Part shown: piece after piece, positions 24,726 to 27,613 of the stretch
How positions within the stretch are numbered: the first letter of the stretch is position 1
Layout: every line of letters begins with the position of its first letter
Assembly: GCA_965217115.1 (NCBI GenBank)
Contig: OZ244239.1
Span: forward strand, 1,088,001-1,152,000
Direction: 5' to 3'
Length of the DNA: 64,000 nt
Source of the DNA: Bdellovibrionales bacterium
GTDB taxonomy: Bacteria > Bdellovibrionota > Bdellovibrionia > Bdellovibrionales > CAYMLA01
Translations under genes and position numbers: made by a program
Notes under the pieces: generated by a model
Databases searched by the model: none
Seen by the model: the letters and a program-made list of their open reading frames with translations, nothing else
Told to the model about the DNA's origin: nothing

Positions 24726-24978
24726 ATAAAGAAACTGCCCTGGCAGAAAACATAAAGGCCTACTAGACTAAAGTCCTAGGCCCCTTCGATAACATCTCCA
24801 CAGGATCATCTTGATTCTAAAGAGCCCTCTTCCATGCTCTGAAATGATTAAGAGATGATTTACTTGGAAAAAAAAAGAAAATAGTGACTAAACTTTGATC
24901 TAAAACCCTTCCATTTCTTTCTTGAAACAACATTGGTTTTAGATATTTAGCTTATTTTTATAAAAACATTGAACAGTC

Positions 24979-25005
24979 TCAAGTTGTTCATTTTTTTGAC
25001 GATAA
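24979..25005 (+). promoter_or_regulatory. Sigma28 (FliA)-like promoter of the sigma54 activator
   Basis: TCAA-N15-GACGATAA; overlapped by inverted repeat TGAACA-N9-TGTTCA (24970-24990). Confidence 0.6.
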
Positions 25006-25088
25006 GTGTGATGTTAACACCAATGGCGTGAATGCCGCCTGAATCGTCCATTTAAAAACCAAGGACCTTCAGGACTAAAGGAGAGGAA

Positions 25089-26630
25089 ATGATTAACTGG
25101 GACGAATTTGAACACATACATGTCATCAAAAGACTTAAAGGGGTTCTTAATTCATGGTGGAATATCGACACTGTTTTCACTGACGAACGTGGACAGTTAA
25201 AGGGGTTTTATAAAGATAAAACCTCCTTTGCAAACCCTGTTACGGAAAGCTTTCTCAGCAAAGAATCCGCTGCAAATAATCTCTGCGAACTTGTCTCTAA
25301 AACTTTAGATGAATTACGTATTTCAGAAAACCGCTATGCCATTCGTAAATGGGATATGACAGGATTTGATGTCGCCATTTTCCCTATTATCATTGATGGG
25401 GATATGCTGGGAACTGTTGTCACTCTTGGATTCTTAAAAGACAGCGAAGGGAATCGTCTGGTTGAGATTCGCGAAAGGCTGGCTGCCTTCGGCTGTTCTG
25501 GGGATATTATAGAAGCCGCCCTCTCTAAAGTAAAATTTCTTGAAGACCAAGAAAAAAATCATTTCTTGGAACTAGCTCACCTTGTTGCTCAGGAGGTCGT
25601 TACTCTCCACCTAGAAATCACTTCACGGGAAAATAGAATTGAAGAACTCAATAAAGAACTGGGAAGTCGTTATAAATACGACAATATGATTGGTAAGTGC
25701 AAACCTATGCAGAGTCTTTACGCTCTTTTAGATAAAATTAAAAAATCCGAGAGCACTGTGCTTATTCAAGGTGAAAACGGAACTGGTAAGGAGCTTATTG
25801 CCAAGGCCATTCACTATAACTCAGATCGCAAAGACAATCCTTTTGTTATTCAAAACTGTTCGGCCTTTAACGATAATCTACTAGAATCAGAGCTTTTTGG
25901 TCATATCAAAGGGTCCTTTACAGGGGCGAATCGCGATAAGAAAGGCCTCTTTGAAATGGCTGACAAAGGAACCTTTTTCTTAGATGAAATTGGTGATACA
26001 TCACCACAAATGCAAGTTAAGCTTCTCAGGGTTCTCCAAGAGGGAACGTTTCTGCCCGTAGGTGCTGTCGATTACAAACGTATTAATGTAAGGTTTCTCG
26101 CTGCGACAAATAAGAATTTACGGGAAATGGTTGAGAAAGGAACCTTCCGTGAAGATTTATATTACAGACTAAACGTGATTAACCTGAGAGTTCCTCCTCT
26201 GCGTGAACGCAAAGAAGATTTACCACTTCTTGTAGACTTTTTCTTGAAGAAAAACTCTGACTCTAAGAATTTTCTAACAAAGAGAGCCTTGGAAAAACTA
26301 TATGACTACTCTTGGCCTGGTAATGTCAGAGAGTTACAAAATGAAATAGAAAGACTCTCTGTTCTCTCTGGTGAAGACACGAAACTCACTGCTGACATGC
26401 TCTCTCTGAAGATCATCGAAGCCTCAGAAAAAGGAAAACTTCAAGGCACTCGACTTCAGGGAAAACTTAAGGATGCCATTGAAGAACTGGAAAGGGGCAT
26501 GATTAAGGAGGGCCTTCATCGCACGGGCTGGAATAAGTCCAAACTGGCTAAAGAACTTGGGATCAGCCGAGCAGGACTTATAATGAAAGTTGAGAAGTAT
26601 GACCTAGACAAAAGGCGTATTGCTAAATAA
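25089..26630 (+). CDS. Sigma54-dependent activator (bEBP): PocR-like sensor, AAA+, Fis HTH
   Basis: [66 protein letters not shown]. Confidence 0.93.
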   Translation: [513 protein letters not shown]

Positions 26631-26764
26631 TTTTTAACTATCTAAGTGTGTTTTCTAAAACACGCTTTTGTGGCAACTCTATATATATTACAGTAATGAC
26701 TATTAATTAGACTTGGACTCCCTTGCTTAAAAGGCTCTTCTGCCATTTCCTTTGATCTGTTCCT

Positions 26765-26780
26765 AGGCATAGATCTAGCA
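26765..26780 (+). promoter_or_regulatory. Sigma54-like promoter
   Basis: AGGCAT-AGATC-TAGCA; GG-N10-GC spacing exact. Confidence 0.5.
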
Positions 26781-26827
26781 TATCTCCATTTCAAGCCCCC
26801 AACCATTTATTTAAAAAGGGGGATTAG

Positions 26828-27613
26828 ATGAATGAGAGGATATGTATTATGGTGAAAAATTTAAGCTCTTCTGAGTTTTACTGCCCTTCTCAAGGATCTA
26901 TGTGGAATCGACATTTTCAAAGAGTCTGTCATGAATTGTCTGATCTCATGCATGGCCAACATGGCTGTAAATTAAGTGTCAATATTTCTGAACAATCAAA
27001 CCTTTATAAGAACTATTTAAAGCTCAATATACCCGAACTTCCTGAAGAGCTGAATATCTTCATTAGCGACGCACAAACTCTGCCTCTTCAAGAGCAAAAC
27101 AATCTTATTGAACACGTTCAATCAGTCCTAAGCTCTTTTTTGTGTCATTGGCTAGCTCTAGAAAACACGAACAGAGAGTGTCTGCCCCATGTCAGCGTCC
27201 ATGAGAGCTCACTCAAACAAGAAATCCCTCCCATTGTTTTTTCCTCCAAGTGCTGTGAACAACTTGAGCGATCCGCTATAGATTTTAGTCATTTGTTCAA
27301 CCTTCAGGGTTTCATTCATTGGAAAGATCTTTCTATAAATACAGATGAGGACATCCATAAATTAAGTGATATCGTTATTTATGTCTCTGACCTACACCTC
27401 TTAAGCATTAAGGATCAGGATCTTATTGCCCGTAACTTAAACAAAGGGCAATGGGTTTTTGGACACTTGAAATCAACACCTCCCATTAAAAACAATCGTT
27501 CTTTTACCGAAAAAGATCAAGAGAACCTCTCTCGACACACCCTCGATATAGATAATATTCCCTATTTCAAGAAAAACATTCAGGCTGTTATTAAAATGAT
27601 TATTAATTTTTAA
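26828..27613 (+). CDS. Hypothetical protein, degenerate bEBP-type AAA+ domain
   Basis: [23 protein letters not shown] and [21 protein letters not shown] align by eye to Walker B and R-finger regions of the adjacent bEBP. Confidence 0.55.
   Translation: [261 protein letters not shown]

Follow-up and report, generated by a model that had tools for sequence, protein, structure and literature searches.

The DNA considered here is a 64 kb stretch (the window, to which positions refer unless the genome is named) of a Bdellovibrionales genome, a single contig of 2.17 Mb that is 99.4% complete and has 39.6% G+C; it carries the gene of a sigma-54 activator, or bacterial enhancer-binding protein (bEBP), at 25089-26630, followed by the open reading frame (ORF) 26828-27613, here called ORF2. 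By the evidence of profile searches, intermediate forms and a predicted fold, ORF2 is a divergent member of an unnamed, order-wide family of pseudo-ATPases descended from a sigma-54 activator, and the closest bEBP relative of this family is the gene immediately upstream, of the type of Bd0156. The first-pass annotation, made from the letters alone, had taken ORF2 for a catalytically dead AAA+ paralogue of the bEBP, and this is now established; it had added that the dead subunit could poison the hexamers of its parent and serve as a negative-feedback timer, and these two steps we still only infer.

The activator, its dead paralogue and their family

Regarding the upstream gene, its product has all the domains and motifs of a bEBP and is a complete, bona fide sigma-54 activator. 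The Pfam matches are Sigma54_activat (PF00158; E 6.5e-68, 228.1 bits), AAA_lid_14 (67.4 bits) and HTH_8 (44.1 bits), and a PocR-like match of 22.3 bits, below the cut-off, covers the N-terminus. The intact Walker A/B and the GSFTGA loop seen at first pass were confirmed and located, with GENGTGKE at residues 228-235, GSFTGA at 275-280 and DE at 299-300; the three motifs are unchanged across 18 orthologues, which are 69-75% identical over the full length. The sensor domain alone (residues 1-195) has 54-70% identity in the matches listed and occurs in one copy in 192 of the 201 genomes of the order that were searched; in this and the other order-wide counts, the related genomes do not stand as independent cases. 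The Bd0156-type bEBP is near-universal in the order and among its most conserved regulators.

As for ORF2, a strong Shine-Dalgarno sequence, AAGGGGG, precedes its ATG at 26828, and an alternative gene call in a protein collection starts at Met8. Its product has no Pfam match, even at E<=1, and no NCBIfam match; BLASTP finds no similarity to the bEBP, and a word-index search of 5.8 billion proteins retrieves the protein itself alone. In phmmer against 1.8 billion representatives, it finds itself and, from other samples, fragments that are 42% identical at the C-terminus and 36% identical at the N-terminus (one further match was repetitive and was rejected as false); two metagenome scans contained no closer relatives. 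Searched in six frames, 41 related genomes yielded weak matches (11 of the 41 at E<=1, best E 7.1e-5), which are positional orthologues; at loci L002 and L005, for example, they lie between the bEBP orthologue and an APH-type kinase.

Three family profiles were used, of 4 sequences, of 23 rows (A2) and of 45 rows (A4). The first finds a family member in 163 of the 201 genomes, mostly one per genome; the third has matches in 200, a count that is only an upper bound because this profile also collects true bEBPs and gives 2-8 matches per genome. Thirty-eight loci with a family member were fetched, as best matches plus hand-picked representatives of other families rather than as a random sample; in 29 of them, the flank 5' of the family gene includes a bEBP orthologue, and in 35 the next gene downstream, on the same strand, is AmgK-like. 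The synteny check proposed with the first-pass annotation, made here within the order, usually places the family between a Bd0156-type bEBP and AmgK/MurU-like genes.

The connection of this family with bEBP AAA+ domains was obtained from several profiles. Sigma54_activ_2 (PF14532) is detected in 12 of 23 family members at E<=0.01, with a best value of 8.7e-8; the L005/L011 protein reaches 32.9 bits, above the gathering cut-off of 25 bits, and five of eight further family proteins are also over it (45.2, 38.5, 29.7, 29.1 and 26.1 bits). Since these orthologues pass the model and ORF2 has no match to it, the family belongs there and the window member has drifted below detection. Against the PDB, the 45-row profile retrieves 34 sequences at E<=1, of which 32 are bEBPs, with NtrC1 (1ny5; E 1.3e-8) at the top, followed by NtrC, DmpR/CapR, FleQ, NifA, VpsR, FlrA/C, ZraR and PspF; the other two are matches to a GAF domain, which are weak and involve the N-terminal part. 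The earlier A2 profile found no bEBP in the PDB, and its hhalign comparison with the bEBP alignment (A3) was weak (E 0.074).

Within the genome itself, a profile of the C-terminal domain, made without the long forms described below, was searched against all 7,824 ORFs of at least 60 amino acids (aa); it retrieved ORF2 and then seven bEBPs, at E 1e-5 to 1e-3, and nothing else to E 1e-3. The result is not circular: a profile lacking the window protein and its two closest fragments has ORF2 as its best match (E 6.5e-9), followed by the neighbouring bEBP (8.5e-8) and then by other bEBPs. In hhalign runs split by domain, the C-terminal parts matched each other at E 4.9e-6 and the N-terminal parts at 1.2e-3, with cross-controls at 0.42 and 0.43. 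The three alignments of ORF2 with the bEBP that had been made by eye are in the same register as those of the profiles.

Two loci, L068 and L072, have long forms of 413-414 aa at the same place, 5' of the AmgK-like gene, and these have Sigma54_activ_2, AAA_lid_14 and HTH_8. Among the nine bEBPs of the genome, the lid and HTH of the two long forms match best the one in the window, with 87 versus 64.7 and 70 versus 49.7 bits. Such intermediate forms fit the duplication of a Bd0156-type bEBP, followed by loss of the catalytic motifs and then, mostly, of the lid and HTH.

Regarding these motifs, in ORF2 the segment SSKCCEQL stands opposite the Walker A of the bEBP, GENGTGKE, and the glycines of the P-loop are gone; no row of the 45 has K in the column of the Walker A lysine, which holds R 13, I 10, N 6, L 4 and others. 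Walker B is lost too, ORF2 having VIYVSD with S187 and D188 in the D/E positions; in the 45 rows, the D column has E 13, P 13, S 5 and D 4, and the E column has D 23, N 11 and E 5. The L1 segment, from beta2 to the Walker B strand, counts about 20 residues in ORF2 (163-181) versus 42 in the bEBP (252-293), and no GAFTGA-like string occurs in the 45 rows. The near-invariant columns of this alignment are A150, F162 and L192 only; because none of them is an arginine, no arginine finger or sensor arginine is conserved. Finally, the protein ends at residue 261, directly past the last strand and helix of the core, without lid or HTH_8. The absences noted at first pass (Walker A lysine, GAFTGA, arginine fingers and HTH) are therefore real, and the lid is to be added to them.

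The AlphaFold2 model of ORF2 has a predicted local distance difference test (pLDDT) of 82.3 and a predicted template modelling score (pTM) of 0.58. Its N-domain comprises a helix (24-45) and three strands (48-52, 64-66 and 76-80), a long helix (87-118) follows, and the C-terminal part is a five-stranded alpha/beta core (136-260). The small alpha/beta N-domain, the linker helix and the AAA+ core are the parts that the family has retained. In an exhaustive VIA structure search, all 50 rows listed are AAA+-type ATPase domains, aligned over residues 130-244: the top match is Lon (Z 9.4; root-mean-square deviation, rmsd, 2.8 with 106 aligned residues), then CbbX and 4bs1_B (9.3), with bEBPs at Z 8.2-8.8, namely the E. 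coli sigma-54 activator domain 3n70 (8.8), NtrX (8.7), VpsR (8.6), GtrR (8.3) and DmpR (8.2). The bEBP entries beside 3n70 include 5m7n, 7v2b, 7vbw and 6iy8, and the Sigma54_activ_2-type structure 3co5 has Z 6.8. These values are just above those typical of unmatched models, so that the fold supports the sequence evidence and does not replace it. Foldseek, a search suggested at first pass, matched ORF2 to no PDB entry at E<=1e-3; AAA+ or P-loop proteins make up most of its weaker matches. The N-domain modelled alone (pLDDT 78.3) has its best match, an ambiguous one at Z 6.0, with the GAF domain 4fof_A (rmsd 3.4, 100 aligned).

The family is maintained by selection across the order. Among Bdellovibrio-like orthologues, purifying selection is strong, to judge from the codons: the ratio of nonsynonymous to synonymous substitution rates (dN/dS) of 16 pairs (60-99% identity, dS<2) is 0.019-0.123, with a median of 0.052, values that are rough because dS is near saturation. 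Between families, the ORF2-type protein diverges fast, down to 11-20% identity with the window copy, while the bEBP stays 69-75% identical. The 87 database relatives found by the A2 profile are all unnamed or called 'hypothetical protein', save one stray name; the nearest cluster in the ESM-Atlas (score 0.90) has been named automatically, as 'putative Sigma-54 factor interaction domain-containing protein'. The likeness to sigma-54 activators has thus been annotated by machine but, as far as the searches go, it is apparently undescribed in the literature searched.

Table 1. Features of the bEBP-ORF2 region, with window positions
Feature	Position	Strand	Basis and remarks
Sigma-28 (FliA)-type promoter, TCAAG-N15-ACGATAA	24979..25005	+	Read in the sequence; recurs across loci
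bEBP (Bd0156 type), 513 aa	25089..26630	+	Pfam and NCBIfam: N-terminal sensor with weak likeness to PocR, then AAA+ core (GSFTGA), lid and HTH_8
Spacer of 197 bp, weak AT-rich hairpin after the bEBP stop	26631..26827	+	Consensus scan
Palindrome-like GACTATTAATTAGAC	26698..26712		5/7 complementary pairs; no sign of a function
Candidate degenerate sigma-54 promoter, TAGGCATAGATCTAGCA	26764..26780	+	GG at 26766-67, GC at 26778-79; 47 nt before the ORF2 ATG
ORF2, 261 codons	26828..27613	+	Truncated dead bEBP paralogue: N-domain 24-80, linker helix 87-118, AAA+ core ~130-261
AmgK-like anomeric sugar kinase (APH fold)	27678..28808	+	Pfam APH; best NCBIfam match AmgK, E 1.7e-39, below the curated cut-off
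MurU-like sugar-1-phosphate nucleotidyltransferase, hexapeptide-repeat C-terminal part	28805..29842	+	MurU, E 3.7e-23, below the cut-off

Promoter motifs of the pair and expression of the putative HD100 counterparts

The sigma-28 promoter that the first-pass annotation had assigned to the bEBP, TCAA-N15-GACGATAA, is present, with TCAA at 24979-24982 and the -10 element GACGATAA at 24998-25005. A motif of the form yAAGTyyGTC...TTGACGATAA occurs 31-97 nt 5' of the bEBP start codon in 25 of 28 loci, the window included, and the remaining three upstream regions have variant copies (L054 and L076 with one mismatch; L042 is the third). On this recurrence, the element is read as a sigma-28-type promoter, deeply conserved across the order, and a transcription start site (TSS) is expected near 25013. 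It agrees with the FliA pattern of a -35 TAAA/TTAAG and a -10 (G)CCGATAA at a distance of 15-16 nt. The strict pattern has five occurrences in the genome, and a looser one is not enriched genome-wide (34 versus 28 in the reversed genome). The genome encodes a FliA/WhiG sigma factor (264.8 bits), and searches for flagellin (PF00669), FlhA (PF00771) and the rod-protein motif (PF00460) found nothing in it; the host is apparently aflagellate, yet it retains both the sigma-28 factor and a sigma-28-type promoter before the bEBP.

In Bdellovibrio bacteriovorus, the attack-phase FliA consensus, TTAAG-N16-CCGATA, was derived from 92 of 140 mapped attack-phase promoters (PMC3627812), and in the form given in the accessible part of that paper it agrees with the bEBP promoter motif. 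The portion of its supplement that was available lists the identical -10, GACGATAA, at the mapped TSS of Bd2532, which is marked as a FliA site; among its promoter strings, ACGATA is found in 4 and CCGATA in 51.

Two further observations concern sigma-28-type sites. A GACA(G)-containing word, TTAGACAG / TTGACAGTC, is found about 12-17 nt 3' of the sigma-28 -10 of the bEBP gene at L040, L046, L048, L052, L062 and other loci, and in some loci also 5' of the -35; this word could be an operator. Near-identical sigma-28-like motifs, TAAAGTAAAC[CT]AGA..TTCGTCCGATA, are present at window ~33536 (-) and at genome position 783013 (-), 38 and 7 nt 5' of ORFs of 463 and 633 aa, respectively.

As for ORF2, the spacer that precedes it contains neither a terminator nor a sigma-70 promoter by consensus scan, and no Rfam match; the sole sigma-70-like site nearby on the + strand, TTGGGA-16-TATAAT, is at 26557-26584, within the 3' end of the bEBP gene. 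The candidate sigma-54 promoter TAGGCATAGATCTAGCA agrees with the consensus YTGGCACG-N4-TTGCW at 9 of 13 positions; the convincing sigma-54 sites of the genome, which has rpoN, read YTGGCAY-N5-TTGCT. At the same place 5' of the family gene, 8 of the 37 other loci have a site of the TCGGCAC-N5-TTGCC(TAT) type with a score of at least 10, and each of the eight is from a different genus; the antisense strand gave 0 of 37, and 300 shuffles gave a mean of 0.47 and a maximum of 3. The palindrome-like site GACTATTAATTAGAC, to which the first-pass annotation had drawn attention, is there, with 5 of 7 pairs complementary and no k-mer enrichment to go with it, and is without support. Elsewhere in the window, near-consensus sigma-54 candidates were noticed at ~14191 (+) (TTGGCACTGCACTTGCT; genome 1102191), 44 nt 5' of a 524-aa ORF, and at ~33759 (+) (CTGGCATCTTCATTGCT; genome 1121759), 13 nt 5' of an 812-aa ORF.

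Expression values are available for strain HD100, in the accessible supplement of PMC3627812; the orthologues were assigned by gene order and lengths, and the columns were assigned to phases by our own reading, for which the attack-phase gene Bd1891 served as a check. Bd0156, the bEBP orthologue, has 671 reads per kilobase per million (RPKM) in attack phase and 96 in growth phase, and this 7-fold attack bias is what a FliA promoter predicts. Bd0155, a hypothetical protein gene of 870 bp (289 aa) and the putative orthologue of ORF2, has 13.9 and 4.7 RPKM, respectively; the hypothetical gene Bd0154 has 2.0 and 59, and the nucleotidyltransferase gene Bd0153 has 2.1 and 36. In these samples, Bd0155 is co-expressed with neither neighbour. 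No paper naming Bd0155 or Bd0156 was found in the literature searched.

A proposed partnership and competing explanations

With its ATP site, sigma-54 contact and DNA-binding domain lost, the ORF2 protein would be unable to hydrolyse ATP, touch sigma-54 or bind DNA, and most likely would act through protein contacts; its most economical partner would be the parent bEBP. The AAA+ domain and lid of the bEBP (residues 190-455) were co-folded with ORF2 in three runs, which gave a score of 0.68 (0.68, 0.70 and 0.68) versus 0.00 for the best control; 116 of 157 solved complexes and 2 of 215 mismatched pairs attain this score, a calibration that holds only roughly because own alignments were used for the co-fold. 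The runs share 100% of their contacts, with a partner pLDDT of at least 66. The predicted contacts join bEBP residues 205-222, 345 and 359-369 (R360 included) to ORF2 residues 147-182, which span the helix that follows the dead P-loop, strand 2 and the shortened L1 segment; the predicted interface resembles that of an ordinary AAA+ ring in which ORF2 takes the nucleotide-site position.

In the mechanism that we propose, the dead nucleotide-site face of ORF2 would dock on the arginine-finger face of the bEBP AAA+ domain, as in a normal ring. Since ORF2 can hand on neither an arginine finger nor a lid, the ring would be capped or interrupted by it. Assembly or ATPase coupling of the capped ring would be limited, making ORF2 a modulator, most likely a negative one, to which the small N-domain may supply a second input. 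Transcription of the family gene would be sigma-54 dependent in several lineages, and possibly also here from the degenerate promoter; such control of ORF2 would close a feedback loop downstream of sigma-28. The parts of this proposal are not equally secure. ORF2 is probably a non-enzymatic partner that tunes the activator; the whole chain, from dead paralogue to binding as a cap, poison or negative modulator of the bEBP ring, is tentative and is placed somewhat short of an even chance. A feedback timer, which requires the sigma-54 site to be real here and the bEBP to act on it, is doubtful. Still a little less likely is the circuit in its full form, with a 'decoy protomer', one copy of a tandemly duplicated activator stripped to a dead AAA+ core and a small sensor, that would cap or poison the hexamer and, in loci where a sigma-54 promoter precedes its gene, act as a negative-feedback timer through a sigma-28, bEBP, sigma-54, decoy series in the life-cycle switch of predatory Bdellovibrio-like bacteria; the same low expectation applies to its retention in a member without flagella, in which nothing flagellar is left for FliA to control.

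Several observations weigh against the proposed partnership. Since bEBP homo-oligomers have been solved, the success of the co-fold may reflect likeness to these rings and not binding, so that this check, also suggested at first pass, is passed by score and stays ambiguous in meaning. As for the N-domain, HMMER cross-searches with the bEBP sensor were blank, and the link is limited to the hhalign value of E 1.2e-3; a full-length hhalign comparison of the family with the bEBP, at E 1e-25, was discarded as unreliable because the reversed template scored E 2.8e-19 and 1 of 11 column shuffles also reached E 7e-19. The claim that ORF2 has its own sigma-54 promoter stands in part: the GG-N10-GC motif is where it had been seen and has a strong version in 8 of 37 other loci, but the window copy is degenerate; 998 sites of the genome score as well as TAGGCATAGATCTAGCA, which makes 0.045 expected in the 197-bp spacer and the site weak alone, and the Bdellovibrio- and Pseudobdellovibrio-like loci have no GG-N10-GC of score 9 or more before the family gene. 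Moreover, no 6- or 7-mer that could mark an upstream activator site is enriched 5' of the sigma-54 motifs (11 loci, 200 shuffles). In the HD100 samples, Bd0155 is near silent in both phases, with no sign of induction by the activator, and Bd0156 is absent from the list of 140 attack-phase-specific TSSs in the available part of PMC3627812. The family is tied more constantly to the amgK/murU-like genes (35/38) than to the bEBP (29/38). Finally, ORF2 is its most divergent member, with 11-20% identity to the full-length members of A4, and the dN/dS values cover the Bdellovibrio-like orthologues, the window ORF2 having no relative close enough for an estimate of its own.

The first of the competing explanations keeps the partnership and reverses its sign: the dead paralogue would be a positive assembly or specificity cofactor that forms productive mixed complexes in the style of FleT-FleQ or HrpR-HrpS, and alters which promoters fire, or when. 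The same homology, synteny and predicted interface speak for it, strong purifying selection suits any specific partnership, and the known mixed bEBP complexes are mostly co-activating in the parts of PMC9542535 and PMC7277832 that were available. ORF2 lacks, however, the ATP site, arginine finger, GAFTGA and DNA binding of a productive subunit, and the same sources present the known co-activating partners as activators themselves; a positive role is judged unlikely.

A second explanation, considered no more and no less likely than this one, starts from the downstream genes. ORF2 would be the leader of an ORF2-amgK-murU unit, with a sensing or scaffolding role in the recycling of N-acetylmuramic acid and N-acetylglucosamine (MurNAc/GlcNAc), and the bEBP would be merely its ancestral duplication partner. 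The AmgK-like gene is 3' in 35 of 38 loci, often 4-70 bp away, whereas 29 of 38 have the bEBP within the flank, and at several loci it is shifted by 1-9 kb; the AmgK-, MurU- and AnmK-like identities of the neighbours point the same way, and a sigma-54 promoter before envelope genes suits the theme given by the title and abstract of PMC3162934. Against it, Bd0154 and Bd0153 of HD100 are growth-phase genes and Bd0155 is low in both phases, without co-expression in the supplement values; the fold of ORF2 has no hint of sugar or kinase binding, and in genome G001 the family gene occurs without AmgK/MurU-like neighbours.

It is improbable, more so than either of these two roles, that ORF2 is in this genome a drifting remnant of the family without current function. 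Its divergence (11-20% identity to full-length A4 members), the lack of a Pfam match of its own, the degenerate sigma-54 motif and the small genome of 2.17 Mb, from which the whole flagellum was lost, would suit such a remnant. Its frame, however, is open over 261 codons in a genome of 39.6% G+C and has a strong Shine-Dalgarno sequence, the fold is confident (pLDDT 82.3), fragments with 42% C-terminal and 36% N-terminal identity exist in other samples, and the family is strongly constrained elsewhere. That the AAA+ likeness is due to chance, with ORF2 an unrelated orphan, is close to refuted: the empty BLASTP comparison with the bEBP, the empty Pfam and NCBIfam searches of ORF2, the lack of a Foldseek PDB match at E<=1e-3 and the A2 profile without a bEBP in the PDB would agree with it, but independent profiles, intermediate forms and the fold all point to bEBP AAA+ domains.

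Regarding the neighbourhood, an AnmK gene at 29852-30994 (-), with 373 bits versus a cut-off of 387, is convergent to the AmgK-like/MurU-like pair (27678-29842, +), and the three genes make up a small cluster for peptidoglycan salvage. At its 5' end, 27678-27745, the AmgK-like gene holds a short tandem DNA repeat encoding ENSLDDNPLD/ENSLDDNLL; since the orthologues align from about residue 30, either this extension is lineage-specific or the true start is further downstream. On the other side of the bEBP, the gene at 23252-24688 (-) encodes a 478-aa protein with a hydrophobic N-terminus, which belongs to no curated family in Pfam or NCBIfam and has a sub-threshold match to the papain-like Peptidase_C1 near its C-terminus (E 0.021). 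Outside the window, arrays of the 17-mer TTGGTGCGATGCTCGC[TA] occur with a period of ~170-270 bp, for instance at genome positions ~351.6-352.5, 716.9-718.6 and 118.0-118.4 kb; the reverse complement of the 17-mer ends in CACCA, and the arrays may be tRNA genes with an encoded CCA end.

Comparison with known systems and significance

bEBPs are textbook homo-hexameric motors and, to our knowledge, the mixed bEBP complexes described so far are few, all of them between active paralogues. One of them involves FleT, which is not known to have a DNA-binding domain. In the available text on Rhodobacter (Cereibacter) sphaeroides, the master bEBP FleQ and the sigma-54 holoenzyme express an operon led by this second paralogue, and a hetero-complex forms (PMC7277832, PMC9542535); the shape of the circuit is that proposed at first pass, and sigma-28 is part of the same hierarchy. 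The differences are that FleT is described as a second activator that co-activates class III genes, whereas ORF2 has no ATP site, GAFTGA or arginine finger; that FleQ and FleT are without N-terminal regulatory domains (PMC9542535), whereas the bEBP and ORF2 have one each; and that sigma-28 acts downstream of that pair, while here it is upstream of the bEBP. HrpR/HrpS of Pseudomonas syringae and the VnfA paralogues of Azotobacter vinelandii are also paralogous bEBPs that hetero-oligomerise through their AAA+ domains, and the Azotobacter paper raises negative regulation through hetero-oligomers as a possibility (PMC9542535). These partners, however, are full-length, catalytically competent and DNA-binding, and in the portion of that paper at hand none is described as a truncated pseudo-ATPase.

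The GAFTGA-less regulators of PF14532, such as 3co5 of N. gonorrhoeae, resemble the family in that its orthologues pass the model and the L068/L072 forms have the same layout; the third nearest ESM-Atlas cluster (score 0.76) also consists of 'Fis family' regulators of Spirochaetota with PF14532. Having no lid or HTH, ORF2 cannot be a DNA-binding regulator of this type. In the PspA-PspF and NifL-NifA pairs, a separately encoded controller binds the AAA+ domain of a bEBP. HrpV-HrpS, in the accessible part of PMC9542535, and FleN-FleQ likewise have a separate protein that binds this domain and controls its activity; PspA, NifL, HrpV and FleN differ from ORF2 in that none of them is derived from a bEBP AAA+ domain. 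The fold list of the VIA search contains a delta subunit of the clamp loader (1jql_B, Z 6.9). This delta subunit has the AAA+ fold and no ATPase activity, and it works among active subunits; it belongs to another clade with another function, in a machine of fixed stoichiometry that is not a transcription activator.

Of the 12 papers, among 21 on degenerate or inactive bEBPs, whose titles and abstracts were listed, none describes a natural bEBP partner that is both dead and truncated. If the proposed partnership is true, a conserved, catalytically dead and DNA-blind copy, maintained by selection next to the parent gene, would add a new mode of control for sigma-54 activators, and be a natural analogue of the mixed-ring experiments made with mutant subunits. 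With the Bd0156-type bEBP placed under the attack-phase sigma factor, the pair would offer a testable entry to the coupling of sigma-28 and sigma-54 in predatory bacteria, and possibly also to cell-wall salvage through amgK/murU.

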